Source of the DNA: Clostridiales bacterium
Lineage (GTDB): Bacteria > Bacillota > Clostridia > Christensenellales > DTU072
Assembly (NCBI GenBank): GCA_012520515.1
Contig: JAAYOD010000045.1
Coordinates: 4,352-68,351, forward strand
DNA: 64,000 nt
Reading direction: 5' to 3'
Shown here: one piece after another, positions 3,380 to 43,892 of the stretch
Numbering within the stretch: the first letter of the stretch is position 1
How the letters are laid out: the number at the start of each line of letters is the position of its first letter
Notes under the pieces: generated by a model
What the model was told of the DNA's origin: nothing
Databases searched by the model: none
The model's input: only the letters and a program-made list of their open reading frames with translations
Made by a program: the position numbers and the translations under genes

Positions 3380-3385
3380 GATTAT

Positions 3386-3462: not shown

Positions 3463-3497
3463 GTACTTATATATAAATTTTAATTAAGATGCAATAT

Positions 3498-3574: not shown

Positions 3575-3592
3575 TCATTGTTCAGCAAATTT

Positions 3593-3669
3593 TGGTCGGG
3601 GTGAAGAGATTCGAACTCCCGACCCCATGGTCCCAAACCATGTGCGCTACCAAACTGCGCTACACCCCG
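3593..3669 (-). tRNA. tRNA-Pro (anticodon TGG), CCA encoded
   Basis: Reverse complement cggggtgtagcgcagtttggtagcgcacatggttTGGgaccatggggtcgggagttcgaatctcttcaccccgacca. Confidence 0.9.
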
Positions 3670-28196: not shown

Positions 28197-29135
28197 TTAG
28201 TTGACCACATTTACAGGCTTGTTATCTATATAACCTTGAATATTATCTAAAGTTACATTTAGCAATCTTGTTCTTGCTTCTAGTGTCGCCCAAGCAATAT
28301 GCGGTGTAATTATGCAGTTAGGTAAGCCTAGTAACGGATTATCACTATTTGGCGGCTCTTTGCTTAATACATCTAAACCAGCGCCGCTGATTTTGCCACT
28401 TTTTAGTGCATCAGCTAGCGCTTTTTCATCGATAAGAGCGCCTCTTGCTGTGTTTATTAAAATGGCATTCTCTTTCATAAGGGCAAGCGTTTTTGCGTTT
28501 ATCATTTTTTCATTATCGCGTGTAAGCGGACAATGTAAGCTGATTATGTCGCTTTTTTGCAAAAGCTCTTCTAAACTTACGCTACCGTCAAAAGGTGTGC
28601 GATTGTGAACAAGGACATTCAAACCAAAGGCTTTAGCTACCTTTGCCACTACTTTTCCTATGTTGCCATAGCCGACTATGCCAAGTGTTTTGTTGCTAAT
28701 TTCAGTAAGTTTAGCTACGCAATAGCAAAAATCTTGGCTTTTAACCCAGTCCCCTTTAGCTACCGTCTGTGAATGCGCGCCCACTTGTGAGAAAAGCTCT
28801 AGAATAAGGGCAAAAGTATGCTGAACTACGCTAACTGTTGAATATGCTGGCACATTGCTTACAGGTATTCCCTTTGATCTTGCATACTCACAATCTACTA
28901 CATTGTATCCTGTGGCTAGTATTGCTATATATTTTAAATTGGAGCAAGCGTCTATTACACTTGCGTCTATAATTGTTTTATTTGTTACAGCAATCTCTGC
29001 ATTTTGCAACCTTTCAATTACTTTGTCCTTAGGGGTGCGTTCATAAATTTTGACAGAGCCAAACTTTTCTAATGCATTTAAGCTTAAATCATTTTGCATA
29101 AGTGTAGCGGCGTCTAAAACCACAATTTTACTCAT
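28197..29135 (-). CDS. D-2-hydroxyacid dehydrogenase (glycerate dehydrogenase/hydroxypyruvate reductase family)
   Basis: 312 aa. NAD site GIVGYGNIGKVVA. Catalytic R/E/H context (NTARGALID, DVLSKEP, ITPHIAW). Confidence 0.85.
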   Translation of the reverse strand: MSKIVVLDAATLMQNDLSLNALEKFGSVKIYERTPKDKVIERLQNAEIAVTNKTIIDASVIDACSNLKYIAILATGYNVVDCEYARSKGIPVSNVPAYSTVSVVQHTFALILELFSQVGAHSQTVAKGDWVKSQDFCYCVAKLTEISNKTLGIVGYGNIGKVVAKVAKAFGLNVLVHNRTPFDGSVSLEELLQKSDIISLHCPLTRDNEKMINAKTLALMKENAILINTARGALIDEKALADALKSGKISGAGLDVLSKEPPNSDNPLLGLPNCIITPHIAWATLEARTRLLNVTLDNIQGYIDNKPVNVVN

Positions 29136-29150
29136 ATAATAACTCCTTAT

Positions 29151-29179
29151 TTTAAAAATGGGAGCAAAAAGCTCCCATT
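29151..29179 (-). terminator. Hairpin between the SCP2-like gene and the dehydrogenase gene (possible partial terminator)
   Basis: Stem aatgggagc(29157-65)/gctcccatt(29171-79). On the minus strand it is followed by UUUUUAAAAU and immediately by the AAGGAG RBS of 29135. Confidence 0.5.
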
Positions 29180-29199
29180 TTTTACAGTTTGTTTTAATA

Positions 29200-30048
29200 C
29201 TAGCTAGCTTTTTCTTCGTCTAGGTAAGTGCCCTGAGCGTAATATCCTACATCCATCATAAGATTGCCAAGCGCCGCGCCAAACTCGGGAGCGCCTTCTA
29301 TAACTAGATAACCTTGTTTTAGATAATCTATCATATTGGCTTTGCTCATAAGAATATCTAGCGCATGCTTTGGTGTGTCAAATCTCATGGTTAGGAATGG
29401 CTTGGAGCGTTTGTATTCTCCTCTGCCTGATGCGGAATTACCGGCTTTTACCCTTAGCCATGCTTGTAAGTCGTCATAACCATCCACTGCGTAAGCATAA
29501 GCTCTGTCAGGGCTGGATTCTGTAAATGCTCTTGTTGCTGGGTGTCCCACTTTGTTAAGCTGGCTTATGCCGTTGCTAAGCAGATAAAAATATAGTTTTA
29601 TCAGCATTAGCTGATCTTCAAGCTTAGCGGGAGCATCTTTAGCTTGCAACAACGCTGCCATTCTTAGAAGTGTTAGTAAAATTGCTACAAATTTGCCAAA
29701 GTTTTTGAGCACTCCTTTCATTTTGGGCAGCGGCATTCCTTTGCCTGTAAAGAATAGTATGAACTTTTCTACGGTAGGGAACTCTAGCTCAATATCGGGA
29801 TTGGAATGGGATTGGCAAACATGGGTTGTCCATGCGCCGTTTTCCACTACAAAGTGAGTGGAAAGCTTGCCTGTTTTTTTGAACTCGTCGGAGAGTACGC
29901 TTACCTGAAAGACAAAGCTCTTGCCTGCAAATTTTTTCTTAAACTTGGGTTCTGTCTCGGCAATGACCTTAAGTAATGGCAATGCAGAGAAGAAAAATAT
30001 TCGCAAAGCATATTTATCCCCTTGGGTCATTTTTTTTGTTTCTGCCAT
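29200..30048 (-). CDS. Uncharacterised protein with C-terminal SCP2-like domain (paralog of 33330..34082)
   Basis: 282 aa. C-terminus ...TMRFDTPKHALDILMSKANMIDYLKQGYLVIEGAPEFGAALGNLM fits the SCP2 pattern (D..f..ll.Gk......l..G...i.G.......l..l). Collinear with the 250-aa protein at 33330. Confidence 0.55.
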   Translation of the reverse strand: MAETKKMTQGDKYALRIFFFSALPLLKVIAETEPKFKKKFAGKSFVFQVSVLSDEFKKTGKLSTHFVVENGAWTTHVCQSHSNPDIELEFPTVEKFILFFTGKGMPLPKMKGVLKNFGKFVAILLTLLRMAALLQAKDAPAKLEDQLMLIKLYFYLLSNGISQLNKVGHPATRAFTESSPDRAYAYAVDGYDDLQAWLRVKAGNSASGRGEYKRSKPFLTMRFDTPKHALDILMSKANMIDYLKQGYLVIEGAPEFGAALGNLMMDVGYYAQGTYLDEEKAS

Positions 30049-30050
30049 TT

Positions 30051-31142
30051 TTATACCTCGTCAATCCAATTTTCGCCCGCAGGAATCAATCTTGAAGCTA
30101 CATCGCCTGCATTGCCGCTTGCGCCAGCTATATCAAGCTTAGTGCCTTTTACTGTTTCTTCTTCAAACTCTTGGCTAAGCAGTTCTAGCACATTTTTCAC
30201 AATGCCTTCAGCGTCGATTTCGTGCATGGCCATTAGGTCTTCATGTAGTCCAATTGCTGAGAACTTATCTTGTAGACCTAGCTTTCTAAAGGCGCAAGCC
30301 AAACCGCTTTCTACTACAACTTCGCCAACGGCGCTACCAAGCCCGCCAATTACGGAATGGTCTTCTGCAGTAACAATGCGGCGCGTATCTTTAACTGCCT
30401 TTATGATTGCTTCTTTATCAATGGGTTTTATTGTGTGCATATTTAGCACTCTTGCCGAAATATTATGGTCATACTCTAGTATTTTTGCCGCTTGTATTGC
30501 TTGATACACGCAAGAGCCGCAAGCTATTATGGTAACATCTTTACCGTCAGTCATTTCTACTGCTTTTCCTACTTCAAAACCATAGTCATCGGTATTATAA
30601 ACCACTTGGTCAAATCCGCGATTGATTCTGATATAGAATGGTCCTTCGGTGTTTGCCGCAGCTCTTACAGCAAGTCCTGTTTCAATGCCGTCAGCTGGAC
30701 AAATAAGAGTCATATTTACCAAACTTCTTACAACAGCAAAGTCTTCTATGGCGTGGTGAGTAGAGCCTGCTTGTCCAAATGATGTGCCGCCATGAGTGCC
30801 AATAATTTTAACATTGACATTTTGATAGCAAATGTCGGTATGAATTTGGTCAAGCGATCTTAATGAAGCAAACACAGAGAAAGACGATGCAAAAGGAACT
30901 AGGCCGCATTTTGCAAGACCTGAAGCCATGCCGTACATATTTGCTTCGGCAATGCCTACATTTATAAATCTATCAGGAAATTTTTCGGCAAAATCGCCAA
31001 TCTTGGTGGAGCCTTTTAAGTCTGCCGTCATAGCAACTATATTAGGATTTTCTTCCCCTAGCTCGCACAATGTTTTGCCGTATATTTCAGCAGTAGCTAG
31101 CTTTGTGCTTTCTACTGCAGTATAACTTAATCCGCCTGCCAT
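30051..31142 (-). CDS. Transketolase, C-terminal (pyrimidine-binding + C-terminal domain) subunit, with about 40-aa C-terminal tail
   Basis: 363 aa. Motifs FINVGIAEANMYGMASGLA, GTHGGTSFGQAGSTHHAIED, MHTIKPID. Extra tail ...EFEEETVKGTKLDIAGASGNAGDVASRLIPAGENWIDEV. Confidence 0.85.
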   Translation of the reverse strand: MAGGLSYTAVESTKLATAEIYGKTLCELGEENPNIVAMTADLKGSTKIGDFAEKFPDRFINVGIAEANMYGMASGLAKCGLVPFASSFSVFASLRSLDQIHTDICYQNVNVKIIGTHGGTSFGQAGSTHHAIEDFAVVRSLVNMTLICPADGIETGLAVRAAANTEGPFYIRINRGFDQVVYNTDDYGFEVGKAVEMTDGKDVTIIACGSCVYQAIQAAKILEYDHNISARVLNMHTIKPIDKEAIIKAVKDTRRIVTAEDHSVIGGLGSAVGEVVVESGLACAFRKLGLQDKFSAIGLHEDLMAMHEIDAEGIVKNVLELLSQEFEEETVKGTKLDIAGASGNAGDVASRLIPAGENWIDEV

Positions 31143-31143
31143 A

Positions 31144-32019
31144 TTACTTGCCCTCCTTTTCTGCTACTGTCTTTCTTTCTTCAAAGAATTTTGCCAAGTC
31201 TTCGGTAGCTGTCTTAAATTTAGCGTCGTCAATTGCGCCATAATGCCACTTGTAATTGTCTGCCATAAAGCTAACGCCTTGTCCTTTTATGGTGTCTGCA
31301 ATAATGCAAACAGGTTGCTCGTTATCTTTTTTGGCCATAGCATATTCTAGCGCTTGGCAAATTTCGTCAAAGCGGTGACCGTTTATTACCTTTACATCAA
31401 ATCCAAATGCTTTCCATTTGTCAGCAAACGGCTCCAAGCCCATAACATCTTCAGTGTTACCGTCTATGCAGTTATGGTTTCTATCCACAATGGTAACTAG
31501 CTTGCTCATCTTAAAGTGCGCTGTCGCCATAGCAGCTTCCCAAATTGAACCTTCGTGGCATTCGCCGTCGCCTAAGATAAGGAAAGTGTTGTAATCTTGT
31601 TTTTTAAGCCTAGCTGCCATAGCCATGCCTAGAGCAATGGATGAACCATGTCCAAGTGAGCCAGTGGATGCATCAAGACCTTTTACTTTGTTGCTGTCAA
31701 GGTGCATACCTAGTTTGCTTCCTGTAAGGTTAAAGGTTTTTAACTCTTCTACATCAACTAATCCAAGGTCAGCAAATAAAGCTGCAAGCGCAATGCCTAT
31801 GTGACCTTTACTTACTACACAGCGGTCACGGTCGGGGTCGGTAGGATTTTTGGGGTCAAAGTTCATATACTTGTGGTATAATGCGGTAAGTATATCTATC
31901 GCGCTAAAACTGCCGCCAATATGTCCGCTTCCCGCCCAGTAGGTGGTTTTCAAGGTAAGATTACGCAAGTCATTAGCTTTTGCTTCTAAGCGCAACCACT
32001 CTTGTTTTGTTAAAGCCAT
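31144..32019 (-). CDS. Transketolase, N-terminal (ThDP/PP-binding) subunit
   Basis: 291 aa. SGHIGGSFS, VVSKGH, ThDP motif LGDGECHEGSIWEA. One nt from the C-terminal subunit gene. Confidence 0.9.
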   Translation of the reverse strand: MALTKQEWLRLEAKANDLRNLTLKTTYWAGSGHIGGSFSAIDILTALYHKYMNFDPKNPTDPDRDRCVVSKGHIGIALAALFADLGLVDVEELKTFNLTGSKLGMHLDSNKVKGLDASTGSLGHGSSIALGMAMAARLKKQDYNTFLILGDGECHEGSIWEAAMATAHFKMSKLVTIVDRNHNCIDGNTEDVMGLEPFADKWKAFGFDVKVINGHRFDEICQALEYAMAKKDNEQPVCIIADTIKGQGVSFMADNYKWHYGAIDDAKFKTATEDLAKFFEERKTVAEKEGK

Positions 32020-32048
32020 AAATCTATTTCCTCCTAAAAGTTATAAAG

Positions 32049-33317
32049 TTAGTTACGATTAAGTTCGGGGTGCATTCTGCGAACGGCTTTATAAGCTTCG
32101 TCTGCTACATCCCAAGTGAACTGAATGTCTTCGTCGGAAAGAGCGGCGTTTATGAAGAGATTGTGGTGATTGGTAAAGAACACTCCTCTCTTGACGCACT
32201 CTGCTACCCATTCTTGATGTAAAATGGTGGATGGGTAGTCGTTGCCTAGACGCATATACCACATTGACGGCTCACCTGTAACAATTAGGTCAAAGTCATG
32301 GGATTTAGCTACTTTTACTAGACCTTCTGTTAGTTTTTTGCCTTTTTCTGTGACAACTTTAGCAACATCAATTTCTTTCATTTTCTTAATAGCTGCAATA
32401 GCCGCTGCAAAAGGCACTGCTGATAGCCAGTAGCTTCCTGTATACATAATATCTTCAGCCGCTCCTCTCATTTCGTTAGTGCCGCATAGCGCTGAAACAT
32501 TATAGCCGTTTGCTAGAGCCTTACAGAAACAAGAAATGTCTGCCTTTATGCCATAGTGGTAGTCTGAGCCTTTTAGGTTTAGACGGAATCCGCAACGCAC
32601 ATCATCAATGATAAGCACAATGCCATTATCGTCACAAATCTTTCTTATCTTTTCCCAGTAGCCTGGCGCAGGTAAAGCGTTGTCCACCATAGTGGGATGA
32701 TAATAAGGTGTAGAAATAAATGCTGCGATTTCGCCTGGATGCTCTTTTACAAGCTGTTCAAGTTGTTCAGGCGCGTTCCAGTCGATATAAAAGTTATTCA
32801 TGACATCTTCTTTAATAATGCCAGAATATCCTATATGTTGACACCAGGGCGCAACACCATGATAAAAGCCTTTTACAAGAACTAATTTTTTACGGTTGGT
32901 TTTGGCTTTGGCAATCATAGTAGCAAACTGTGTAACATCGCCACCGTTTTTGGCAAAGAATGCCCAATCTGCCATAGCGATAGTGTCTACCATAAGCTCG
33001 GCAAAATCTACCAATAACTCAGTTGGCAAAGTCATGCAGTCGCCTTTTTTGATTTGTGCAATTGCTGCGGCTTCTACATCTGGGTCATTGTATCCCAAAA
33101 TATTTGGTCCATATGCGCACATATAGTCTACAAAACGATTGCCGTCGGCGTCCCAGAAATATGCGCCTTGCGCTTTTTCTGCAAACAATGGGAATGCGCT
33201 GATTGGTACGGCGCAACCGCTAGCAGGTCCAAGGTGGCCGTATACGCCTGCGGGTACAACCTTTAATGCCCTGCGGAATAATTCATTACTCTTAGTGTAA
33301 TCATTAAGTTTCATCAT
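32049..33317 (-). CDS. Class-III (GSAM-like) PLP-dependent aminotransferase/aminomutase, substrate unknown
   Basis: 422 aa. N-terminal pattern like glutamate-1-semialdehyde aminomutase (VVPAGV...G.YFWDADGNRFVDY), IIDDVRCGFR, putative PLP-Lys in CFCKALANGYNVSA. Confidence 0.8.
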   Translation of the reverse strand: MMKLNDYTKSNELFRRALKVVPAGVYGHLGPASGCAVPISAFPLFAEKAQGAYFWDADGNRFVDYMCAYGPNILGYNDPDVEAAAIAQIKKGDCMTLPTELLVDFAELMVDTIAMADWAFFAKNGGDVTQFATMIAKAKTNRKKLVLVKGFYHGVAPWCQHIGYSGIIKEDVMNNFYIDWNAPEQLEQLVKEHPGEIAAFISTPYYHPTMVDNALPAPGYWEKIRKICDDNGIVLIIDDVRCGFRLNLKGSDYHYGIKADISCFCKALANGYNVSALCGTNEMRGAAEDIMYTGSYWLSAVPFAAAIAAIKKMKEIDVAKVVTEKGKKLTEGLVKVAKSHDFDLIVTGEPSMWYMRLGNDYPSTILHQEWVAECVKRGVFFTNHHNLFINAALSDEDIQFTWDVADEAYKAVRRMHPELNRN

Positions 33318-33329
33318 ATATGCCTCCTC

Positions 33330-34082
33330 TTACATTAAGTAGTGACCTACCATGGTCAATAATTTGGACACTTGGTCAAGCATGGAAAGTTTGCCTTTAA
33401 TTAGGAATTTGCCTTCTCCAAGTCCTTTGTAGCTAGATGTTTTTCCGTTAAGTAAATCATGCGCAAAATCTAAATCTGCAAATTCCATAACAGCTCTTGG
33501 ATTTTCAGAACCGCCTAGTCTTGCCGACATAACGCCGTTTGTTACATTAATAGTTACTTGAATGCCTCCAGGAATACCGCAGGCTATGTCGCCGTCAACT
33601 ATTCTAGATGCCACTATCTTACCAACTTCGTCAGAATTTCCGATTTGGCACATTGCAAAGAACGCTGTATAAGCAGTTAGGATAGTATTAATTTCAAAAT
33701 ACTTTCTATCTTTTAATAGTTCTTCGGTGGGCTTTAGGAAGTAGCTTAGTCTATCAGCTAGCTTAGTAAAGGTGTTTAACAAAAATCCAACCTTAAAAAT
33801 GTTTATAAACATGGGTATGGTTTTTTCCCCGTCTATAAGTTTGTTGAAGTGTTCCGGCGAATTAAACCATAGTTTTAACTGCGCTTTTGATTGGTCTGGA
33901 ACAAAGGTGCATTTACCGTCTTTGAATATCAATGATGCAGTGCCTACATCGGGCACATTGAAAGAGACTGATGTCTTTTCATCTTTTATGATATCTTTTG
34001 AGACATCGTCTAATTCGCATAAATCTTGAATATTACGCAAAACGGCAAACAAATTTATTTTTGCCTTGGTTACATTGTCCAT
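33330..34082 (-). CDS. Uncharacterised protein with C-terminal SCP2-like domain (paralog of 29200..30048)
   Basis: 250 aa. C-terminus MEFADLDFAHDLLNGKTSSYKGLGEGKFLIKGKLSMLDQVSKLL fits the SCP2 pattern. AAGGAGG RBS. First gene of the operon. Confidence 0.55.
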   Translation of the reverse strand: MDNVTKAKINLFAVLRNIQDLCELDDVSKDIIKDEKTSVSFNVPDVGTASLIFKDGKCTFVPDQSKAQLKLWFNSPEHFNKLIDGEKTIPMFINIFKVGFLLNTFTKLADRLSYFLKPTEELLKDRKYFEINTILTAYTAFFAMCQIGNSDEVGKIVASRIVDGDIACGIPGGIQVTINVTNGVMSARLGGSENPRAVMEFADLDFAHDLLNGKTSSYKGLGEGKFLIKGKLSMLDQVSKLLTMVGHYLM

Positions 34083-34139: not shown

Positions 34140-34168
34140 ATGATAGCATAGCCAAAAAAAACTATCAA
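34140..34168 (-). promoter_or_regulatory. Sigma-A-type promoter of the SCP2-like/aminotransferase/transketolase operon
   Basis: Minus strand TTGATA (34168-63), 17-nt spacer, TATCAT (34145-40), about 55 nt upstream of ATG 34082. Confidence 0.5.
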
Positions 34169-34197: not shown

Positions 34198-35268
34198 TTA
34201 GGAAATATATATTTTTTTCACTCTTTGCGACAGATGGGTAACTATCTCATAGGATATTGTAGACGACATTTGCGCAATGTCATTTGCAGTGATTATTTCC
34301 TTGCCAAAAATTGTAACATAATCACCTGTTTTTACATTGCCTGCATTTGTTATATCTATCATAGTAAAATCCATGCACACATTGCCTACAATATCGCAAA
34401 CAACGCCATTTACAAACACCTTGCCCGTATTGGACAGGCATCTCATAAGCCCGTCTGCGTACCCAACTGCGACAACGGCTACGCGTATACGCTTTTTAGC
34501 TGTGTACGCCAAATCGTAGCCCACGCTTTCCCCTTTAGCTACATCTTTTATTTGTATTATTTTTGCTTTTAGAGTCATAGATGGATATAAATTTTCTTTT
34601 TGGGGGATATATTGCTCTAAACCTATACGCACACAATCAAAATTGTTTTTTTCATTTTTGCAACCTATACTGTTTGCCATATGACATAAAGGTATCTTTA
34701 TATTTTTTTGTCGTAAATAGTCTAAAACTTTTATAAAGTTATTTCTTTGCCTTTCAGTAAAAAAATTATCTTGCGCTTTTGCAAGGTGGGTAAAAATACC
34801 GTCTATATTAATATAAGGAGAAGTAAATATATTGTTTATAGTATCAAAATCATCATATCTTATGCCTATTCTATTCATTCCCGTATCTATTTTTAGGTGA
34901 ACTTTTATGACTAAGGAATGCTTTTGGGCAAATTCTGTGTACTGGTCAAAGATTTCCTTACTGTAAATGGTGGTCATAATCTCATATTTATTGGCAATCT
35001 TTAGCTTAGCGCTGACAGTTTCGCCAAGCACTAAAATAGGCTTAGCTATACCCTGCTTTCTCAGTAAAACTCCTTCTTGCAAGGTAGCTACTGCTATATA
35101 ATCAATAATGTTTTGAGTAAACTTAGCCACTTGTACTGCGCCATGCCCATAAGCGTTTGCTTTTAGCACTGACATTATCTTTATATCTTTAGCTAAGTCT
35201 TTCTTTATCGCTAAGAGATTGTTTTTTATAGCTTGCAAATCAATCTCAGCAATGACTCGGTCATTCAT
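34198..35268 (-). CDS. alr: Alanine racemase
   Basis: Track start is TTG 35271. ATG 35268 gives MNDRVIAEIDL. PLP-Lys motif SVLKANAYGHG. C-terminal beta domain (VGYADG, ISYEI). Confidence 0.9.
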   Translation of the reverse strand: MNDRVIAEIDLQAIKNNLLAIKKDLAKDIKIMSVLKANAYGHGAVQVAKFTQNIIDYIAVATLQEGVLLRKQGIAKPILVLGETVSAKLKIANKYEIMTTIYSKEIFDQYTEFAQKHSLVIKVHLKIDTGMNRIGIRYDDFDTINNIFTSPYINIDGIFTHLAKAQDNFFTERQRNNFIKVLDYLRQKNIKIPLCHMANSIGCKNEKNNFDCVRIGLEQYIPQKENLYPSMTLKAKIIQIKDVAKGESVGYDLAYTAKKRIRVAVVAVGYADGLMRCLSNTGKVFVNGVVCDIVGNVCMDFTMIDITNAGNVKTGDYVTIFGKEIITANDIAQMSSTISYEIVTHLSQRVKKIYIS

Positions 35269-36109
35269 CAATAGTAGTACCTTTTATATAGTCATCAAAT
35301 ATGGCTTGTTGTAAAGTTTTAAAAAGCTCTTCCCCCTTTCCCCCAATAGCGTCATTGTCAATTTGTATAACTTCATTACATAGACTTCCTGCCGATGAAT
35401 TTATTACAGTGTCGGCAACTTTAAGTTCTTGCAAAGTAAAATGCCTTTCTTCAAATGGAATACCTATCTGGCTGCATTTTTCTAACAAATGCTTTCTGGC
35501 AATGCCATTTAATACATTGCAATCTAGCGGTGATGTAATAAACACTCCATCTTTTAAATAAGAGATGTTGCTGTGGGCACATTCTGTAACATAGTTATTT
35601 CTTACAAATACCACTTCATCAAAATCATCATCAGCGGCTTTAGTGCGCGCTAAGGTATTTGCCAAGATGTTAGGAGTCTTTATATTGCAGTAATAATGTC
35701 TTGTATCTACTGAAGACATAAGTTTTAGCTGTTTGTCCATAGGATATATGCTTTTGGGGGTCAGCATAATAAGCAAATTGGCTATAAGGTCTTTGTCGTA
35801 AACATGACTTCTTATTTGCGTACCCCTTGACGCTTGCCAATAGACCATTTGTTCTGGGCTGTCAACTTTATGTACTAGTTCTAAAATAATATCTTTTAGC
35901 TTGTTTTTTGTAAAGGATAGATTGATACCGAAATAGGCCGCGCTTGCAAAAAATCTATCGATGTGTTCATCTAAGCTGTATGGAATGTAGTTTCTGGTAT
36001 AAACCGATTCATAAACAGCGTCGCCAAAAGCTATGCTTCTATCCAGCATAGGAATAGACATAAACTCTAAAAGACCATACCTGCCATTATAATACCCTAA
36101 ATTTTTCAT
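35261..36109 (-). CDS. Class-IV aminotransferase (D-amino-acid / branched-chain type)
   Basis: 282 aa. Fold-type IV pattern (RSIAFGDAVYE, EHIDRF, ECAHSNI, VLNGIARK). Overlaps alr, which suggests D-Ala/D-Glu metabolism. Dat versus IlvE not resolvable by eye. Confidence 0.75.
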   Translation of the reverse strand: MKNLGYYNGRYGLLEFMSIPMLDRSIAFGDAVYESVYTRNYIPYSLDEHIDRFFASAAYFGINLSFTKNKLKDIILELVHKVDSPEQMVYWQASRGTQIRSHVYDKDLIANLLIMLTPKSIYPMDKQLKLMSSVDTRHYYCNIKTPNILANTLARTKAADDDFDEVVFVRNNYVTECAHSNISYLKDGVFITSPLDCNVLNGIARKHLLEKCSQIGIPFEERHFTLQELKVADTVINSSAGSLCNEVIQIDNDAIGGKGEELFKTLQQAIFDDYIKGTTIDE

Positions 36110-36281: not shown

Positions 36282-37151
36282 ATGTCGATATTATTTATAG
36301 ACACAGACTGTGAACTACCCTTTGCAAAAGCCAAAGAAGCAGGTATAACCAATATTATAAAAATGCCTTATACCATTTGTGGACAACAATACTACGATGA
36401 TTTAGGTGAAACAGAATATAATGCAAAAGAGTTTTTTGATAAAGTAAGGGCGGGTAATATGCCCACAACCAGCGGACTCAATGTAGAGGAGTACAAGGAA
36501 TATTTTGAGCCTTACTTTGCTCAAGATGAAGATATACTATATGTAAGTTTTTCAGATAAAATGAGCAGCACATTCAACTATATGGATATAGCTGTTAAAG
36601 AGCTTTCAGAAAAATACCCCAAAGCTAAATTTACAAGATTTGACACTAAAGGTATAAGCCTAGGAGCAGGGCTTCCTTGCTATTACGCAGGTTTAATGCA
36701 TAGCCAAGGCAAGTCAAATGAAGAAATTATTGAATTTTTAACAACTTTTATTAAGAAGATAAATGTAGTTATCTCCCCGTCTGACCTAAAACACTTAAAA
36801 AGGGGCGGACGCATTTCGGGAGTGCAAGCTACCCTAGGCACGCTGTTGCAAGTAAAACCAATAATAAAACTTATCGATGGCAAACTTGTAAACACTTCCA
36901 AAGTTAATGGCAGAAATAAAGCTATTAATACCATAGCAGAATGCGTTATTAATGAAGTTAGAGAAAAGGAAACATATCCTATTATTATACTTGACGCAGA
37001 CTGTAAAGCTGATGCTGAAAAGCTGCGCGATAAAATAATAAATGCTTACCCTGATGCTACTATTTGGACGCTTGATGTTGGCCCTGTTATAGGAACTCAT
37101 TGCGGACCAGATACCATAGCTGCAGTATTTGTAGGCGATATAAAAGAATAA
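36282..37151 (+). CDS. DegV family fatty-acid-binding protein
   Basis: 289 aa. DegV pattern (TTSGLNVEEY, LKHLKRGGRISG, GTHCGPDT). Confidence 0.85.
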   Translation: MSILFIDTDCELPFAKAKEAGITNIIKMPYTICGQQYYDDLGETEYNAKEFFDKVRAGNMPTTSGLNVEEYKEYFEPYFAQDEDILYVSFSDKMSSTFNYMDIAVKELSEKYPKAKFTRFDTKGISLGAGLPCYYAGLMHSQGKSNEEIIEFLTTFIKKINVVISPSDLKHLKRGGRISGVQATLGTLLQVKPIIKLIDGKLVNTSKVNGRNKAINTIAECVINEVREKETYPIIILDADCKADAEKLRDKIINAYPDATIWTLDVGPVIGTHCGPDTIAAVFVGDIKE

Positions 37152-39102: not shown

Positions 39103-41645
39103 GCCTCATACCAGTTTTTGCCTAGCGAAATGCTCACAGTTAAAGGCACAGTTAGCTCTACTGCATTTTCCATACTTTGACGCAACAGTTTTTTAACAAT
39201 CTCTTGTTCTTCTAGCGGTACATCTAAAATTAATTCGTCATGCACTTGCAAAATTAATTTAGCTTTGAGATTGTTTTCTTTTAACGCCTTTGTTACATTT
39301 AACATAGCAATTTTAATGATATCGCTGGCGCTCCCTTGCAAAGGCATATTCATAGCTGCCCTTTTGCCAAATTCCTTTATGTTATATTTTGGTGAAGCAA
39401 GTTCAGGGAAATGTCGTATTCTGCCTTTAAGCGTACGCAAATACCCTTGCTCTTTAGCTGATTTTACATTGGAATCGATATATTTTTTAACTGCTGGATA
39501 TTCTTTAAAATATTCGTCTATAAAAATTTTGGCTTGATAATTGCTCACTTTAGCATTTTTAGCAAGTCCAAAGCTGCTTATGCCGTAAATAATGCCAAAA
39601 TTAACAGCCTTTGCTGATGCGCGCATTTCTTCGGTGACACAGTCAAGTGGTACATTAAAGATTTTTGATGCTGTAAGACTATGCACATCTATATTATTTT
39701 TGTATGCGTTAACCAAGTGTTCGTCTTGAGAAAAATGAGCAAGCAAACGCAACTCTATTTGGGAATAATCAGCGCTTATAAGAACACCTTTAGACGATAC
39801 AAACATTTTTCTAATTTCTCTGCCTTCTTGCGTTCTTACGGGGATATTTTGCAAGTTAGGCTCTGTTGATGACAGCCTGCCTGTTGCTGTCAAACATTGA
39901 TTAAACACGGTGTGCACTTTATTAGTTGCCTTGTTCATAACACTGCGCATACCATCTATATAGGTGGACTTTAGCTTAGTCAGCGTACGATACCTAAGTA
40001 GCGAATTTATAATAGGATGTTCTAATTCTTCTAAAACTTCAGCAGAAACAGACAGTCCTGTCTTGGTCTTTTTGCCGTGCGTAAGTCCTAGCTTATTAAA
40101 TAAAATATGGCTAAGCTGTTTGTTGGAGTTTACATTAAATTCTTTCCCTGCCATAAAATGAATTTCTTTTACAAGGTCGGCAATTTGAGATGTGTACTCT
40201 TTATCTAGCTCATCAAGCACAAAGATATCTAGTTTAAATCCTTCCTGTTCCATGTCGTAAAGGCATTCAATTAGGGGTAACTCAATATTTCTATATAATT
40301 CTACAAGCTCTTTTTCTTCAAGTATTTTGTTTAGGATTTCATCTAATTTTAATAGCTGACTAGCTAGATTATTTTCCGACAATCCATAATCTGTGCAAAC
40401 TTGTTTTGCGCTTTTAATAACCTTATTGGGATTAATTAAGTAAGCTTTAAGCAGCACATCTTCATAGGGCGCTGACGGCATTATGCCAAAGTTTTTAAGA
40501 GTATAAAAATTTTGTTTGGCGTCAAAGAAAATATTGATATAATCTAAAGAAAACAAGGGCGCTAAAATTTCCGCAACTTCATAATCAGTTATGCCTGTCC
40601 CAAATAAGTCATTGGTTACTGATATATTAAGCTCTTTATCACCATAGGCAACGGCAATACTATCTTGCCACAGCACACACACTTTACTACCTAGCGGTAT
40701 TTCTTTTATTTGCTTAGAAAGCTCATCTTTATTGTTAATTTCTATATTCTCAATCTTTACTTCGTCAATAGGGTTGCTTATTTTGGTATCCTTATAATCA
40801 AAACGGGAAATAAGATTGGTAAACTCCAGCCTTTGCATAAAATCTCTTGCAGACAGTGGCAATGGATATTCAAACCTTAAATCGTCAATATCACAATCTA
40901 ATTCTACTTTTGTTTCAATAGTGGCAAGGTCTTTCGATAAATAGACAAGCTCTTTTGATTCAATAAGCCTTTCTTTTAGCTTGCCTTTAATTTGGTCTAT
41001 GTTGCTATATATACCGTCAATAGTGCCAAATTCATCTAGCAGCTTTGTTGCGGTCTTAACGCCCACTCCTAAAGCTCCCGGAATGTTGTCAGAACTATCG
41101 CCTGCAAGTCCTTTAAATTCTATAATTTTATTTGGGGTAAAGCCTTCTTCTTCAAGTTCATTTAATGTATAAACTTTAACATCGCTAACTCCTCTTCTAG
41201 TGTTAAAAACTGTGGTGCTTTGGTCCACTAGTTGCAAGGTGTCGCGGTCACCGCTAACTATGATTGTAGGCACATTAAAGCGCTTGGACAGTGTACCGAT
41301 TATGTCGTCGCCCTCCACTCCTTCTTTAAGCAATATCTTTATGCCCATTAGCTGTAAAAGTTCTTGCAAAACGGGGATTTGCATAGCTAATTCTTCACTC
41401 ATTGGCTTTCTATTGGCCTTATACTCTTTGTATTTTTCATGTCTAAAAGTTTTTGCTTTGCAATCAAATACAGCGCCAATGTGAGTAGGTTTTTGCTCAG
41501 CAATAAGTTTTTGAAGCATAGAAATAAAACCTAAAATACCGTTTGTATACAACCCTTCATTTGTCATAAGGGGCGGCAATGCATAAAATGCGCGGTTTAT
41601 TAAGCTGTTGCTGTCAAGTAAAATTAGCTTCTGATTAGCTTTCAA
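39099..41645 (-). CDS. polA: DNA polymerase I
   Basis: 848 aa. TTG start. 5'-nuclease domain (LILLDSNSLINRAFYA, GVGVKTA), 3'-5' exo-like region, pol motifs A/B/C (SADYSQIELR, RASAKAVNFGIIYG, LQVHDELI). Confidence 0.95.
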   Translation of the reverse strand: MKANQKLILLDSNSLINRAFYALPPLMTNEGLYTNGILGFISMLQKLIAEQKPTHIGAVFDCKAKTFRHEKYKEYKANRKPMSEELAMQIPVLQELLQLMGIKILLKEGVEGDDIIGTLSKRFNVPTIIVSGDRDTLQLVDQSTTVFNTRRGVSDVKVYTLNELEEEGFTPNKIIEFKGLAGDSSDNIPGALGVGVKTATKLLDEFGTIDGIYSNIDQIKGKLKERLIESKELVYLSKDLATIETKVELDCDIDDLRFEYPLPLSARDFMQRLEFTNLISRFDYKDTKISNPIDEVKIENIEINNKDELSKQIKEIPLGSKVCVLWQDSIAVAYGDKELNISVTNDLFGTGITDYEVAEILAPLFSLDYINIFFDAKQNFYTLKNFGIMPSAPYEDVLLKAYLINPNKVIKSAKQVCTDYGLSENNLASQLLKLDEILNKILEEKELVELYRNIELPLIECLYDMEQEGFKLDIFVLDELDKEYTSQIADLVKEIHFMAGKEFNVNSNKQLSHILFNKLGLTHGKKTKTGLSVSAEVLEELEHPIINSLLRYRTLTKLKSTYIDGMRSVMNKATNKVHTVFNQCLTATGRLSSTEPNLQNIPVRTQEGREIRKMFVSSKGVLISADYSQIELRLLAHFSQDEHLVNAYKNNIDVHSLTASKIFNVPLDCVTEEMRASAKAVNFGIIYGISSFGLAKNAKVSNYQAKIFIDEYFKEYPAVKKYIDSNVKSAKEQGYLRTLKGRIRHFPELASPKYNIKEFGKRAAMNMPLQGSASDIIKIAMLNVTKALKENNLKAKLILQVHDELILDVPLEEQEIVKKLLRQSMENAVELTVPLTVSISLGKNWYEA

Positions 41646-42720
41646 GTTTCATATCCCCTTCCTTTATCCAACCTTTCTTGCGCATAAATTCACTTACAAA
41701 AAAGCAAACTATGGCAGGTATTATAAAGAATAATAGCGCAATTCCCAGTCCTATTTTCCAATCAGGTATTACTCCTAGACTTGCATCAATTGTGCCAAAT
41801 ACGCCAACCAGCCCTGAGGTGCCCATGCCGCCGCCTGAGGCATTGCAGCGAAGTTTGAATAAGCAAGTGGACATTGGGCCTACAATAGCGCTTGCTATAA
41901 TTGGCGGTATAAGTATTTTGGGACGGCGCATTAGGTTGGGAATTTGCAACATACTAGTGCCTAGTCCTTGCGCAATTAGCCCGCCCCATCTATTTTCTCT
42001 AAAGCTTTGTATGGCAAAGCCTACCATGTGCGCTGCGCACCCTACAACTGCCGCTCCGCCTGCTAAAAGCATGGTGTCCGATGTATTGCCAGCAGCTATC
42101 GCTACCCAAATAGCAGCAGACGATGTAGGAAGTGTCAATAATAGTCCCATGCTTACAGCTATAACTATGCCCATAACAAATGGTGTTGCTTCAGTGGCAA
42201 TCTCAATGCCTTTTGCAATTAAATTTATAAATTTTATCATAGGCCACGCTGCAAAAATTGCTAACGATGAAACTATAAGAATAGTCATTGGCACCACAAT
42301 AATATCTACCTTAGTCTTGCCTGATACAAGTATGGCAAGTTCAATTGCAAATAGCGCAACAATATAAGCGCCAATAGGATTGCCAGGCGCAAGCGTCGGG
42401 GCAAATGTGCCTGCAATAATTTGGTCGGCAAAAGCTCCGATATATCCAGCTACTGCTCCGCCAAACAGCGCAAGCTTTGGCGCTTTTAGAGAGTGCGCAA
42501 TACCCACTCCAATTCCTGCGCCCATAAGCAGTTTGGCAACATTTGCAATAGATGTAAACAGCCTGCCTACTGCATTATCCCCTATCCATCTAGCAAGCAA
42601 CGCAAAAATCGTGCCAGCTATAAGAGTTACAAACAAGCCTGATGCCATACCTGAAAAGGCATCAATAAACCAGCGCTTTGCAAGCTTGGAAACTATATTG
42701 CCCTTTTTTTCTTTAGTCAT
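41635..42720 (-). CDS. Polytopic membrane protein, PTS EIIC_2-like (PF13303-type), no EIIA/EIIB nearby
   Basis: 361 aa, about 10 TM, Gly/Ala-rich. The family call is from recalled resemblance of the N-terminal region. ATGA overlap with the upstream patatin gene. Confidence 0.55.
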   Translation of the reverse strand: MTKEKKGNIVSKLAKRWFIDAFSGMASGLFVTLIAGTIFALLARWIGDNAVGRLFTSIANVAKLLMGAGIGVGIAHSLKAPKLALFGGAVAGYIGAFADQIIAGTFAPTLAPGNPIGAYIVALFAIELAILVSGKTKVDIIVVPMTILIVSSLAIFAAWPMIKFINLIAKGIEIATEATPFVMGIVIAVSMGLLLTLPTSSAAIWVAIAAGNTSDTMLLAGGAAVVGCAAHMVGFAIQSFRENRWGGLIAQGLGTSMLQIPNLMRRPKILIPPIIASAIVGPMSTCLFKLRCNASGGGMGTSGLVGVFGTIDASLGVIPDWKIGLGIALLFFIIPAIVCFFVSEFMRKKGWIKEGDMKLES

Positions 42721-43892
42721 GCTTCCCCCTTAGTTTTTAAGTCCTTAATAATTATGTTAAACAAATTGTGTTCTCTTATCATTTTTTCGTTTTTATCGTG
42801 GTTATCAAGTATGTTAGTATTATAACAGAGTTCTTGCGCTTTACCAATAAATTCCTTAAGTGAATATATAAAAAATCTTTCTAAATTTAAAAGCAAAGCA
42901 AACTTTTCTAAAAAATGCAAAAAGTTTTGCTCATTGGTCAATGTTTTATTCTTTTTGCAATTGCGATAAATAGCGCTTATCACATCAATTTTTGACGCAT
43001 TTGGTTTTAACTTGTACAGGGAAGCTATTTTACTTATTGCGTCATTGCTAAGACTAAATAGTAACTCATTGATTTCATAGTATTCAGCTTGCAGATAATA
43101 CTTATACCCAGTAAGCTTACGCATCATTTTGAGCGCATCATAATAACCTAATTTTATGTTGTATTTTATCTTATCAGGATTTATTTCCGTTACTTTACCA
43201 AGCCATTCGTTAGGCTGTATAATTTTTAGTTTCACTGACGAATCCACAAGCGGACGCATCTTTTTGCTTCCCGTTCTTACGGCTATTATTTCGTCGTATT
43301 TACTTTTTCTTATCAGCGCATTTATGGGCAAATTATCATAAACTCCACCGTCTAGGTAGTATTTTCCGTTTATTTTTGCCATTTTAAATATAGGAAAGTA
43401 TGCACTAGCAAAGACAAAATCGCATAAATATCCATAGGGAATGTCTTCAAGGTGAAGTTCTAGCGGTTTTTTGTCTGATATGCAAAATGTAACAATGGCA
43501 AAATCGCGCCCTGAATTTCTTATTTTATCTTCGTCAATATACCGTTTTAAAAATGGAATAACCTTGTCGGTAGGAACGCCAAAGTTCTTAATTATGGCAA
43601 TGGCTTTCTCTATCCAAAATCTCATGGATTGCGATTGCGGCTTTTGACTAAAAAAAAGGCGCGCGGCTTCGTTATTTTCGACATCAATAACATCAGATAT
43701 CTTGATATTAGTCCACATATCAAGACATACTTCATAATTGTCGTCTTGCACTATCATTGCGCCATTTACAGCGCCAATAGATGTGCCAGCGACGCCGTCA
43801 AAAGAATATCCGTTATCATACAGCGCTTTTACTGCGCCTACATGATAAGCGCCTTTTGCGCCACCGCCTTCCAAAACCAAACCTATTTTCAT
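42717..43892 (-). CDS. Patatin-like phospholipase with about 190-aa C-terminal extension
   Basis: 391 aa. Oxyanion GGGAKGAYHVG, nucleophile GTSIGA, catalytic DGG (YYLDGGVYDN). Confidence 0.85.
   Translation of the reverse strand: MKIGLVLEGGGAKGAYHVGAVKALYDNGYSFDGVAGTSIGAVNGAMIVQDDNYEVCLDMWTNIKISDVIDVENNEAARLFFSQKPQSQSMRFWIEKAIAIIKNFGVPTDKVIPFLKRYIDEDKIRNSGRDFAIVTFCISDKKPLELHLEDIPYGYLCDFVFASAYFPIFKMAKINGKYYLDGGVYDNLPINALIRKSKYDEIIAVRTGSKKMRPLVDSSVKLKIIQPNEWLGKVTEINPDKIKYNIKLGYYDALKMMRKLTGYKYYLQAEYYEINELLFSLSNDAISKIASLYKLKPNASKIDVISAIYRNCKKNKTLTNEQNFLHFLEKFALLLNLERFFIYSLKEFIGKAQELCYNTNILDNHDKNEKMIREHNLFNIIIKDLKTKGEA

Follow-up and report, generated by a model that had tools for sequence, protein, structure and literature searches.

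A five-gene operon in the window (the 64-kb stretch of DNA analysed here) has, in our view, about an even chance of encoding a pathway that detoxifies or catabolises a hydrophobic 2-amino-1,3-diol, which would be transaminated to a "lipid ketose" and then cleaved between C2 and C3 by a ThDP-dependent enzyme. Homology and gene context point to a sphingoid-type 2-amino-1,3-diol, for example sphinganine or sphingosine, as the most likely substrate. If true, deamination followed by removal of the two-carbon head would be a route with no earlier description, carried by an unstudied operon from anaerobic bacteria; our literature search found no paper describing the cluster or assigning it a pathway, in agreement with the original prediction that it matched no characterised one. 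That prediction had also suggested, with due caution, that the operon makes or degrades an amino-polyol and may, aided by SCP2-like proteins, generate a two-carbon ketol on a hydrophobic substrate, and the new evidence is in line with this.

All five genes lie on the minus strand: A (34082-33330, 250 aa), B (33317-32049, 422 aa), C (32019-31144, 291 aa), D (31142-30051, 363 aa) and E (30048-29200, 282 aa), packed with gaps of 12, 29, 1 and 2 nt, just as described before. Pfam searches returned the expected families for four of them, PF02036 for A, PF00202 for B, PF00456 for C and PF02779 + PF02780 for D, whereas E, for which a match had also been expected, had none in Pfam or NCBIfam. Gene layout and Pfam results thus bear out a self-contained operon of the composition first proposed. 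It is preceded by alr and a gene for a class-IV aminotransferase and followed by genes for a D-2-hydroxyacid dehydrogenase, tRNA-Leu and a GalU-like nucleotidyltransferase, and it contains no kinase, isomerase, transporter or regulator in this window; nor does the operon of this genome hold an aldehyde-handling enzyme. It ends, as had been claimed, at an intrinsic-terminator hairpin (29154-29182, minus strand) with a perfect 12-bp stem, a 5-nt loop and a T-run, whose folding energy of -18.2 kcal/mol (z = -6.2) was equalled by 0 shuffles. The proposed promoter, TTGATA-17-TATCAT with a TG extension (34140-34168, minus strand, 58 nt 5' of the start codon of A), is indeed present and matches the consensus at 10 of 12 positions, but promoter-like sites are not commoner in the region than in shuffles (27 found, 24.2 expected), and as the promoter of the operon this consensus match is only plausible. 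No Rfam family was found in the operon leader.

The five-gene arrangement is not due to chance. Among 80 species-level loci retrieved with protein A, A and B were adjacent in 76, the remaining 4 being cut by contig ends; the order A-B-C-D-E was colinear in 41 loci, and A-B faced an inverted E-D-C in 12, a strong recurrence on a point that the original prediction had left to neighbourhood analysis. Across phyla the five genes, those for two SCP2 proteins among them, stay linked. The module occurs in dozens of clostridial and spirochaete species, with a rare and patchy distribution (114 of 185,579 species genomes). Extended clusters, seen in Lutispora, Oceanirhabdus, Paramaledivibacter, Vallitalea, Brassicibacter and spirochaetes, append a TetR regulator, a glyoxalase-fold protein and an OYE/FAD enoate-reductase-type enzyme, and look inducible and lipid-related. 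In the window's clade, a D-2-hydroxyacid dehydrogenase stands in place of these additions. This is gene F (28197-29135, minus strand; PF02826 + PF00389), a D-isomer 2-hydroxyacid dehydrogenase and probable accessory gene that starts 19 nt past the terminator hairpin and whose nearest NCBIfam models, PRK06487 and PRK08410, both score under their cut-offs. Since an F-type gene lies downstream of E in 18 of the 41 colinear loci, including L014, L059 and L061 with differing other flanks, the operon may consist of five genes plus one, and the role suggested for F is to supply or recycle a 2-oxo-acid co-substrate. DegV fatty-acid-binding proteins were seen as cluster neighbours in three different contexts, and a gene for an Abhydrolase_3 esterase precedes A at L027 and L049.

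By its sequence, B belongs to the FumI type of class-III enzyme (aminopentol aminotransferase), a more specific assignment than the "GSAM-like" class-III PLP enzyme first described. Its best PDB match, over the full length, is FumI itself (6hbs, E 2.3e-99, 41.5% identity), followed by GSAM at 3.8e-45. The catalytic Lys is kept, and FumI-type motifs are common to B and more than 60 orthologues, whereas the GSAM carboxylate-binding motif NSPVR (Arg32) and part of the gating-loop region are missing from all of them. Against all HemL/GSAM NCBIfam models, B scores 188-209 bits where the equivalog cut-offs are 486-527; the view that it is no bona fide HemL therefore stands. A set of housekeeping genes adjacent by chance, with HemL for tetrapyrroles next to the cell's pentose-phosphate transketolase, would fit the automatic JGI annotation of B as "glutamate-1-semialdehyde 2,1-aminomutase" and the finding that there is no other transketolase within the window. 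This explanation has scarcely any probability left and is effectively refuted by the HemL scores, the missing GSAM motif and the conserved five-gene linkage, and it is further opposed by the second transketolase pair near the cluster in some relatives and by the non-canonical active-site residues, described below, of every cluster-type transketolase orthologue. FumI removes the C2 amino group of hydrolysed fumonisin B1, whose chain is like that of sphinganine, with a Km of 1.1 uM and pyruvate as the preferred acceptor, and its authors noted that C1-C5 of the product "resembles a simplified ketose" (PMC3136697). At 41.5% identity, it is not guaranteed that B shares the substrate of FumI.

C and D are the two subunits of a split transketolase which, by alignment, has its catalytic residues intact and a substrate channel altered throughout the family. 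C is the N-terminal (ThDP/PP-domain) subunit and D the C-terminal (Pyr + C domain) subunit, with best PDB matches to the Carboxydothermus split transketolase 6yak (E 3.5e-67) and to 6yaj (E 9.6e-83), respectively. In C, the catalytic His equivalents of human H37, H77, H110 and H258 are conserved, and next to them stand the family-specific changes P38 to I/V, G109 to M/I and G259 to Y. Comparing D across 42 cluster-type orthologues (at least 45% identity to the window's D), the cofactor Glu (human E366) and the equivalents of S345, H416 and R474 are kept in all 42, and D424 is replaced by A/G and E423 by Q/A/T, likewise in every one; R318 has become A/G/S/T in 40 and is R or K in the two that remain. 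Human D424 (D469 in E. coli, D477 in yeast) binds the acceptor 2-OH, and R318 is a phosphate-binding residue. The cluster enzymes are thus like canonical transketolase in their catalytic residues but have lost the acceptor 2-OH Asp and, usually, one phosphate Arg. In transketolase engineering, the D424 and R318 positions have been mutated to admit non-phosphorylated, non-hydroxylated aliphatic aldehydes. A natural precedent for a transketolase acting on a lipid, to which C/D can be likened, is the steroid-17,20-desmolase DesAB, a split transketolase proposed to act on a hydrophobic ketol (PMC3735941).

Three of the four phosphate-binding residues of C/D are nevertheless retained, which counts against a lipid substrate and leaves a little room for a pure sugar-phosphate role. 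They would also suit a pathway that breaks down a small, hydrophilic amino-polyol or amino-ketose, for instance serinol or an amino-sugar alcohol, the primary inference of the earlier work, in which A and E would be structural or regulatory subunits. Several proteobacterial FumI-like genes adjoin peptide-type or sugar-type ABC transporters, sugar kinases and ROK regulators, so that the subfamily is not exclusively lipidic. However, two dedicated SCP2-fold proteins, the loss of the sugar-acceptor Asp and of a phosphate-binding Arg, a regulator of TetR and not sugar type, and the absence of any transporter, kinase or isomerase from all 53 full clusters leave a hydrophilic substrate with a rather slim chance.

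The paralogy of A and E holds at the profile level: the full-length comparison of E with the A family gave an hhalign probability of 96% (E 2e-9), where plain BLASTP gave just E 0.013. The SCP2-like assignment also holds, though its confinement to the C-termini does not. The PF02036 match of A (24.7 bits) is N-terminal, at residues 19-87, and in the AlphaFold models (pLDDT 91.5 for A, 93.9 for E) each SCP2 match spans about half of the protein, with an order of secondary structure corresponding to two SCP2-like halves. Foldseek matched the model of A solely to SCP2, UbiJ and alkylsulfatase SCP2 domains, and that of E solely to SCP2-fold proteins; the two halves of A also align with one another (hhalign E 1.4e-4). 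On these models, A and E are distant paralogues, each predicted to be a tandem SCP2 fold. The A family is rare and stand-alone, with 542 matches among 1.84 billion representatives and 0 fusions. A is always beside B, and E always beside C/D, even where E-D-C is inverted. We propose that A may be a lipid-binding or lipid-presenting partner of B, and E a lipid-binding partner of C/D.

The lipid reading thus draws on the FumI type of B, the altered C/D channel and two SCP2-fold proteins locked to one enzyme each, together with the DesAB precedent, the extended clusters, the lipid-related neighbours and the recurrence, described below, of an aminotransferase with C-C lyases. In the pathway that we infer, A would pass the lipid to B, which would transfer the C2 amino group onto a 2-oxo acid (pyruvate for FumI) to give a 1,3-dihydroxy-2-ketone, the "lipid ketose". 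C/D, served by E, would then attack the C2 carbonyl and cut C2-C3, releasing a fatty aldehyde and keeping the C2 glycolaldehyde unit on ThDP, from where it could be handed to an aldose phosphate and so enter the pentose-phosphate pool. F may regenerate the 2-oxo-acid acceptor in the window's clade, and in other lineages the flavoenzyme would suit reduction of the 2-enal formed from sphingosine. Stereochemistry argues against this scheme, as by our own CIP reasoning the ketol from natural D-erythro sphingoid bases would be 3R, in contrast to the 3S donors of canonical transketolases. The scheme would call for an epimerase or a changed stereopreference; the glyoxalase-fold protein could fill that role, but it is missing from the window. 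The want of a regulator, transporter and aldehyde-handling enzyme in the operon here also weighs against it.

Transamination and transketolation are both reversible, so the direction is not fixed, and a small chance belongs to the reverse, in which a sphingoid-type amino-diol lipid would be made independently of SPT. Here the transketolase would add a C2 ketol, from hydroxypyruvate or a ketose phosphate, to a fatty aldehyde, B would aminate C2 of the resulting 1,3-dihydroxy-2-ketone, the SCP2 proteins would hold the lipid intermediates, and F would convert glycerate to hydroxypyruvate. This is the logic of engineered cascades in which a transketolase and a transaminase yield 2-amino-1,3-diols, the F family, with its 18 co-occurrences, includes glycerate/hydroxypyruvate reductases, and the window's operon sits amid housekeeping DNA with no regulator gene. 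On the other hand, the characterised relative FumI is catabolic with pyruvate as acceptor, half of the clusters carry TetR, glyoxalase-fold and enoate-reductase genes of the kind that mark inducible catabolism or detoxification, and the rare, patchy distribution does not favour biosynthesis. Nor is any fatty-aldehyde-forming reductase, N-acyltransferase or head-group enzyme linked to the cluster, and in 13 loci the A-B pair has no transketolase with it, while in other lineages an SDR takes the place of the transketolase.

The same deamination and cleavage of an alpha-hydroxyketone could also serve a non-sphingoid hydrophobic substrate, which we consider unlikely though worth keeping in view. 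Candidates are aryl-serinols (for example the chloramphenicol base), 1-deoxy amino-polyols of the fumonisin/AAL type, hopanoid or steroid side chains bearing an amine, and alkylamines. The substrate of FumI itself is a 1-deoxy amino-pentol, not sphinganine (PMC3136697), DesAB suggests that transketolases can accept steroid ketols, the SCP2 fold binds many lipids (its PDB neighbours here include UbiJ and alkylsulfatase domains), and carriers come from habitats as diverse as digesters, guts, marine sediments and vents. However, the His residues that bind the donor C1-OH are conserved, favouring a HOCH2-CO- ketol, and hence a 1-hydroxy substrate, over 1-deoxy compounds, and the clusters show no consistent link to an esterase, a hydroxysteroid dehydrogenase or a steroid transporter. 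To our knowledge, sphingoid bases are the only abundant and ubiquitous natural long-chain 2-amino-1,3-diols.

The pairing of an aminotransferase with a C-C cleaving enzyme recurs with other C-C lyases. In Shinella, a FumI-like aminotransferase adjoins ThDP E1/E2 genes of the acetoin-dehydrogenase type, and in Novosphingobium another adjoins a carbohydrate kinase and class II aldolases, at a locus that also carries a TetR regulator, a TonB receptor, a lipase and an aldehyde dehydrogenase.

The operon of genes A to E is real, conserved and lacks an annotation. All five genes are on the minus strand, A at 34082-33330, B at 33317-32049, C at 32019-31144, D at 31142-30051 and E at 30048-29200; A and E encode proteins of the SCP2 fold, B an aminotransferase, and C and D the two subunits of a split transketolase. 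The gaps of 12, 29, 1 and 2 nt given in the original prediction were reproduced by our ORF listing. The prediction also credited the operon with its own promoter, TTGATA-17-TATCAT, and this claim stood in part: the site, with a TG extension, is present in the 115-nt leader upstream of A, but similar matches are equally frequent in shuffled sequence (27 vs 24.2), so that we regard it only as a plausible promoter. A search of the leader against Rfam at the gathering score returned no riboswitch or other RNA family. The terminal hairpin has a 12-bp perfect stem (29182-29154) followed by a T-run, with a folding energy of -18.2 kcal/mol (z = -6.2), and none of 200 shuffles folded as stably. The flanks are also as first described, with alr and a class-IV aminotransferase gene upstream, and a D-2-hydroxyacid dehydrogenase (gene F, 29135-28197, minus strand), tRNA-Leu and a GalU-type nucleotidyltransferase gene downstream. 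The two upstream genes overlap by 11 nt on the same strand as the operon and immediately upstream of it (34198-36109, minus strand); they were considered as operon members and rejected, since the linkage is confined to the closest relatives. Exact-match look-ups placed the operon locus in an uncultured Clostridiales MAG and in digester/biogas metagenomes. Base composition was uninformative with regard to horizontal transfer, the G+C content of the operon (0.41-0.43) being barely above that of its flanks (0.34-0.40). Elsewhere in the window there is a cluster of six tRNA genes (Tyr, Thr, Phe, Asp, Met, Pro; 3114-3669, minus strand).

A pattern scan for the A family over 185,579 species genomes confirmed 114 relatives, and 80 loci were fetched and their neighbours analyzed by tblastn and de novo clustering. 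The five-gene arrangement recurs across genomes: A-B-C-D-E is colinear in 41 loci, and in 12 others A-B faces an inverted E-D-C. Thirteen loci have A-B without a cluster-type transketolase inside the flank, and in 10 the contig ends less than 3.5 kb past B. A and B are adjacent in 76 of the 80, the other four ending at a contig edge, and remote members of the A family still adjoin an Aminotran_3 gene. These arrangements indicate two modules, in which A moves with B, and E moves with C/D. There is also a transketolase-less variant, consisting of an A-like gene, a FumI-type aminotransferase gene (FumI being an aminopentol aminotransferase) and a short-chain dehydrogenase gene, in a Planctomycetota MAG (L087:1245-4119) and on a metagenome contig (JGI 3300072015); this variant suggests that A-B is the constant part and that there are other ways of processing the ketone. 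The carriers are Christensenellales-like MAGs from guts, rumen and digesters, spirochaete MAGs, and the cultured Oceanirhabdus, Brassicibacter mesophilus, Paramaledivibacter caminithermalis, Vallitalea and Lutispora saccharofermentans. Accessory genes fall into two mutually exclusive sets. Gene F follows E in 18 colinear loci, some with otherwise different flanks, while the other clade has a TetR regulator (21 loci), a glyoxalase-fold (VOC) protein (14 loci) and a flavoenzyme of ~755 aa, OYE-plus-FAD, of the enoate/2,4-dienoyl-CoA reductase type (9 loci). TetR control is seen in half of the clusters.

A PTS_EIIC_2 permease was considered as the transporter, as it is directly upstream of A in 23 loci, and was rejected, as in the window it lies 7.5 kb away. 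The window copy stands alone (41635-42720, minus strand) with 57% identity to the permease of those 23 loci, and its nearness to A is probably inherited synteny and not a functional link. It is followed by a gene for a patatin-like phospholipase (42717-43892, minus strand), and many related loci have the permease together with a gene for an M28-like membrane protein. Genes of the fatty-acid-binding DegV family are found ~0.6-3.6 kb from A in at least three different gene arrangements (window 36282-37151, plus strand; L065:2912-3763, L070:7764-8621, L071:3348-4199 and L068:8574-9368 in the related loci), and an Abhydrolase_3 esterase gene is upstream of A in two loci. One Clostridiales MAG (L070:13090-14479) has, as an insertion separating B from C, three tandem paralogous ORFs of ~136-155 aa that lack a recognised domain, along with two further ORFs.

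B has the predicted Aminotran_3 domain (PF00202, 139 bits), and its closest solved relative is FumI of Sphingopyxis (PDB 6hbs), matched over the full length at E 2.3e-99 and 336 bits with 41.5% identity; the best match to a glutamate-1-semialdehyde 2,1-aminomutase (GSAM, HemL) was at E 3.8e-45 and 158 bits. Every HemL/GSAM equivalog model scored B far below its cut-off (TIGR00713, 188.1 bits vs 527.3; NF004856, 209.4 vs 486; NF000818, 209.3 vs 398). In an alignment of B with more than 60 orthologues, FumI and one GSAM, the GSAM motif GG(V)NSPVR is replaced in B and its orthologues by AGVYGHLG, which has no Arg. The Arg of that motif is GSAM Arg32 (Synechococcus numbering), the residue binding the substrate carboxylate. 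Since YGH stands in place of NSPVR in both B and FumI, the Arg that would bind the carboxylate of glutamate semialdehyde is missing in both. An 11-residue deletion relative to the GSAM loop region is also common to B, its orthologues and FumI, as are, between B and FumI, the motifs YGH, DYMCAYGPN, ADWAxFxKNG, DDVRxGFR, NGY and TGSxWxSA. By similarity and motifs, then, B belongs to the FumI-type subfamily and is not a bona fide HemL. The PLP-binding Lys is retained, the Lys of C(F/W)xK being aligned with those of GSAM and FumI, but the fold and this Lys do not discriminate for HemL, as the whole of class III has both. The annotation of B as HemL is a widespread error, which our reading, if right, would correct. 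An identity of 41.5% to FumI does not fix the substrate of B.

Both transketolase subunits have the domains anticipated for them, Transketolase_N (PF00456) in C, and Transket_pyr (PF02779) with Transketolase_C (PF02780) in D. Among solved structures the nearest is that of the Carboxydothermus hydrogenoformans split transketolase (6yak/6yaj, E 3.5e-67 and 9.6e-83), with human transketolase next. C/D resembles the Carboxydothermus enzyme in its division into two subunits and in its ThDP-binding and catalytic His residues. The residues equivalent to human H37, H77, H110, H258, E366 and H416, which comprise the cofactor Glu and the catalytic His set, are conserved. The substrate site is another matter. 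We compared 42 cluster-type D orthologues with at least 45% identity to the window D (47-88%), using human numbering. All 42 have Ala or Gly in place of D424 and Gln, Ala or Thr in place of E423; at R318, 40 have Ala, Gly, Ser or Thr and the remaining two keep R or K. S345, H416 and R474 are retained throughout. The human and Carboxydothermus enzymes have the canonical Arg/Glu/Asp at 318/423/424, in contrast to Ala/Gly, Gln and Ala in the cluster enzyme, so that the full canonical sugar-phosphate site (R318, S345, H416 and R474, with D424) is not found in the cluster D. D424 corresponds to E. coli D469 and yeast D477 and forms a hydrogen bond with the acceptor aldose at its 2-hydroxyl; the substrate phosphate is bound by R318 (E. 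coli R358). These two positions are the ones altered in directed evolution towards non-phosphorylated, non-hydroxylated aliphatic aldehydes. In C, an unbiased scan for family-specific positions returned P38 to I/V, G109 to M/I and G259 to Y, each beside one of three catalytic His residues. Judged by its sequence, C/D is not a canonical pentose-phosphate transketolase, as two substrate-site residues differ; the three phosphate-binding residues that are retained would fit a sugar phosphate as the second substrate. The notion that the operon simply combines a housekeeping HemL with a housekeeping transketolase, for which the class-III fold and PLP Lys of B are not discriminating, is ruled out by the curated cut-offs, the motif analysis and these active-site substitutions, and we give it scarcely any credence.

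Two side features of the transketolase may be mentioned. The 363-aa D of the window ends in a tail of ~30-40 residues (…EEETVKGTKLDIAGASGNAGDVASRLIPAGENWIDEV; 30051-30170, minus strand) that is absent from most orthologues, of about 335 aa, and from solved transketolases. Several genomes have near the cluster a second split-transketolase pair with ~40% identity to C/D (L015:8736-10417, L019:15725-17541, L021:15739-17504, L028:18419-20181, L030:8108-9863, L036:12867-14605, L059:16499-18270 and L061:16523-18332), which is non-canonical in a different manner, keeping the R318 equivalent but with S345 to C/A, H416 to D and D424 to N.

The two remaining proteins had been expected to match PF02036. 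A gave a marginal hit (residues 19-87; 24.7 bits, the cut-off being 21.3) in which no individual stretch passed alone, and E had no Pfam match. AlphaFold models of A (pLDDT 91.5, 27 homologues) and E (pLDDT 93.9, 30 homologues) were compared with the PDB by Foldseek, and all the matches at E <= 0.01 (the top 45 for A and the top 38 for E) were SCP2-fold proteins, with probability 0.94-1.00, including SCP2 itself, the SCP2-like domain of MFE-2, UbiJ and the C-terminal domains of alkylsulfatases; stand-alone SCP2 domains gave a target TM of 0.5-0.66. For the SCP2, UbiJ and alkylsulfatase domains taken together, E values were about 1e-4 to 1e-5 and the target TM about 0.6. Each match spans roughly half of A or E, and the order of helices and strands is repeated between the two halves of the models. 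Within A, the two halves show weak mutual similarity (hhalign E 1.4e-4), and the A and E families can be aligned over their whole length (hhalign probability 96%, E 2e-9). The full-length alignment and the half-repeats together mark A and E as remote paralogues, both built of two SCP2 folds in tandem. On the predicted structures A and E have the SCP2 fold, with sequence support that is marginal for A and absent for E, and the fold makes them putative lipid carriers. An A-family profile matched 542 representatives in 1.84 billion proteins; among the best 150 of these there was no fusion ('Rosetta stone') protein, all being stand-alone proteins of ~250 aa or fragments. Named database copies of A and E are 'hypothetical protein', with the exception of one JGI record, 'putative sterol carrier protein'. 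SCP2, UbiJ and the alkylsulfatase domains have the same fold, but A and E differ from them in consisting of two SCP2-like halves within a stand-alone chain of ~250-280 aa, in making up a small family of their own, and in occurring as a paralogous pair of which each member goes with another enzyme. UbiJ sets a precedent here, as an SCP2 protein that presents a hydrophobic intermediate to soluble enzymes.

The presence of a FumI-type transaminase, a ketol-cleaving ThDP enzyme without the sugar-specific polar residues, partners of a lipid-carrier fold and TetR control leads us to propose, with about even confidence, that the cluster serves the catabolism or detoxification of lipid amino-alcohols. 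The original prediction, of an amino-polyol or amino-ketose operon with SCP2-like proteins, thereby holds overall and becomes more specific through the FumI-type B, the altered transketolase and the SCP2 folds of A and E. By analogy, the chemistry we infer would be as follows. A long-chain 2-amino-1,3-diol would be transaminated at C2 to a 1,3-dihydroxy-2-ketone, chemically a lipid-tailed ketose, and the transketolase would then cut the C2-C3 bond, releasing a fatty aldehyde and moving the glycolaldehyde unit onto an aldose phosphate. Sphingoid bases would be the obvious natural substrates. Sphingosine would give a 2-enal, a textbook substrate for the appended enoate-reductase-type enzyme; it is also speculation that the VOC protein could epimerise or isomerise the alpha-hydroxy-ketone, and that F could recycle the 2-oxo-acid acceptor. 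Another hydrophobic amine as the substrate is a reading that we consider unlikely. The stereochemistry is a weakness of the sphingoid proposal, in that, by our own reasoning, natural D-erythro bases would yield a 3R ketol, and canonical transketolase donors are 3S. The direction is a weakness of the catabolic reading, as the transamination and transketolase steps are both reversible; the same chemistry run biosynthetically is an unlikely alternative to lipid amino-alcohol breakdown, set against the pairing of a FumI-type, deaminating aminotransferase with TetR control. In the synthetic direction, transketolase followed by transaminase would convert a fatty aldehyde and a C2 ketol to sphingoid-type 2-amino-1,3-diols, with tandem-SCP2 chaperones holding the intermediates, and we see only a slight chance that anaerobic Clostridia and Spirochaetes make serine-palmitoyltransferase-independent sphingolipid-like bases in this manner. 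Engineered transketolase/omega-transaminase cascades use the same two enzyme classes and the same 1,3-dihydroxy-2-ketone intermediate; they are synthetic, run in the biosynthetic direction with hydroxypyruvate and small substrates, and have no carrier proteins.

Precedents exist for both halves of the proposed catabolic route. FumI deaminates C2 of hydrolysed fumonisin B1, a sphinganine analogue, with a Km of 1.1 uM and with pyruvate as the preferred acceptor, and gives an alpha-hydroxy-ketone whose C1-C5 part 'resembles a simplified ketose' according to the authors (PMC3136697). The likeness of the fum cluster of Sphingopyxis sp. MTA144 to ours lies in the full-length homology and motifs that FumI shares with B; it otherwise has a carboxylesterase, tricarballylate genes and a TonB receptor, and SCP2-type proteins or a transketolase are not reported there. 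It presumably also encodes an acetolactate-synthase-like ThDP enzyme. The FumI substrate is 1-deoxy, whereas the window transketolase keeps the residues for a 1-hydroxy ketol, and the FumI host is an aerobic alphaproteobacterium, unlike the carriers of the cluster. DesAB of Clostridium scindens (EDS07885/EDS07886) is a split transketolase proposed to cleave the ketol side chain of cortisol, HOCH2-CO-C(OH), with the C2 unit feeding the pentose-phosphate pathway (PMC3735941). It resembles our case in its split N/C architecture, anaerobic Firmicute host and hydrophobic ketol, and is a precedent for cleavage of a lipid-type substrate; as this substrate already bears the ketol, no deamination is needed. 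Compared by gene content only, desABCD has a 20-alpha-HSDH and a Na+ symporter, and lacks an aminotransferase or SCP2 protein; neither an HSDH (desC/desE) nor the symporter (desD) was found in the window or any of the 80 related loci, although the split architecture is present in the window. By analogy, the operon would join a deamination of the FumI kind to a ketol cleavage of the DesAB kind. In eukaryotes, sphingosine kinase phosphorylates C1 and sphingosine-1-phosphate lyase, by a PLP-dependent retro-aldol reaction, keeps the amine in phosphoethanolamine. The bond cut (C2-C3) and the aldehyde (hexadecanal, or 2-hexadecenal from sphingosine) would be the same, but the cluster would remove the amine first and then make a ThDP-dependent cut, and the operon has no homologue of the kinase or lyase.

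The conserved neighbours are A, B, E, F, TetR, the glyoxalase-fold protein and the OYE/FAD enzyme; absent among them are genes of the sulfo-TK route (sulfosugar isomerase, sulfoacetaldehyde reductase), of D-apiose catabolism (apiose kinase or isomerase) and of the Rif-Orf15A/B route (AHBA synthase, kanosamine genes). As had been suspected, the operon matches no known split-transketolase pathway, its gene content differing from des, sulfo-TK, apiose and AHBA. Full-text searches found no paper that links the components or assigns a pathway, and this applies to the literature on transketolase with aminotransferase and SCP2, bacterial sphingoid-base degradation, gut-bacterial sphingosine deamination, the FumI structure and the ThDP enzyme of the fum cluster.

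The novelty is in the combination of known enzyme kinds with an uncharacterised tandem-SCP2 family. Guts, digesters and sediments are rich in sphingoid bases, which come from Bacteroidota, the diet and the host and are strongly antibacterial; to our knowledge, their detoxification or consumption by anaerobic bacteria is essentially undescribed, and the hypothesis bears on how anaerobes deal with them. If true, it would provide a compact pathway, independent of oxygen, for taking off the toxic amine and salvaging the C2 head as well as the fatty chain, would make C/D only the second transketolase proposed to act on lipids, after DesAB, and would give a function to a tandem-SCP2 family that is wholly 'hypothetical' in databases. 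Feed additives against fumonisins already make use of FumI-type enzymes, and a transketolase naturally open to non-hydroxylated aliphatic aldehydes would be of direct interest for biocatalysis. The hypothesis is directly testable, as five cultured species carry the cluster.

Independent support for the cluster logic comes from Proteobacteria, where we found FumI-like aminotransferases with 62% (L091, a Novosphingobium capsulatum plasmid) and 50% (L092, a Shinella sp. HZN7 plasmid) identity to FumI. The Novosphingobium gene is flanked by a carbohydrate kinase gene and class II aldolase genes, and the same cluster encodes TetR, a TonB receptor, a GDSL lipase, a P450 and an aldehyde dehydrogenase. 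The Shinella gene neighbours acetoin-dehydrogenase-type ThDP E1/E2 genes, clustered with those for a four-carbon acid sugar kinase and a class II aldolase. From these gene contents, the deaminated product would in both cases pass to an acyloin- or ketose-cleaving enzyme, and the two look like further uncharacterised amino-alcohol catabolic clusters. That some FumI-like contexts look hydrophilic is a weakness of the lipid reading and would fit a hydrophilic amino-polyol as the substrate; weighed against the loss of sugar-specific polar residues in the transketolase and the lipid-carrier fold of A and E, such a substrate seems rather improbable. A few Christensenellales-like genomes (L018:17087-18410, L020:19261-20127 and L049:16745-17389) also have class II aldolase/adducin genes (PF00596) at a distance of 2-5 kb on the downstream side, echoing the class II aldolases beside the proteobacterial FumI-like genes. 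On the Shinella plasmid the FumI-like gene also adjoins a class-IV aminotransferase gene (L092:8980-11286), as the window operon adjoins alr and a class-IV aminotransferase gene, and this association might be related to alanine/pyruvate recycling.
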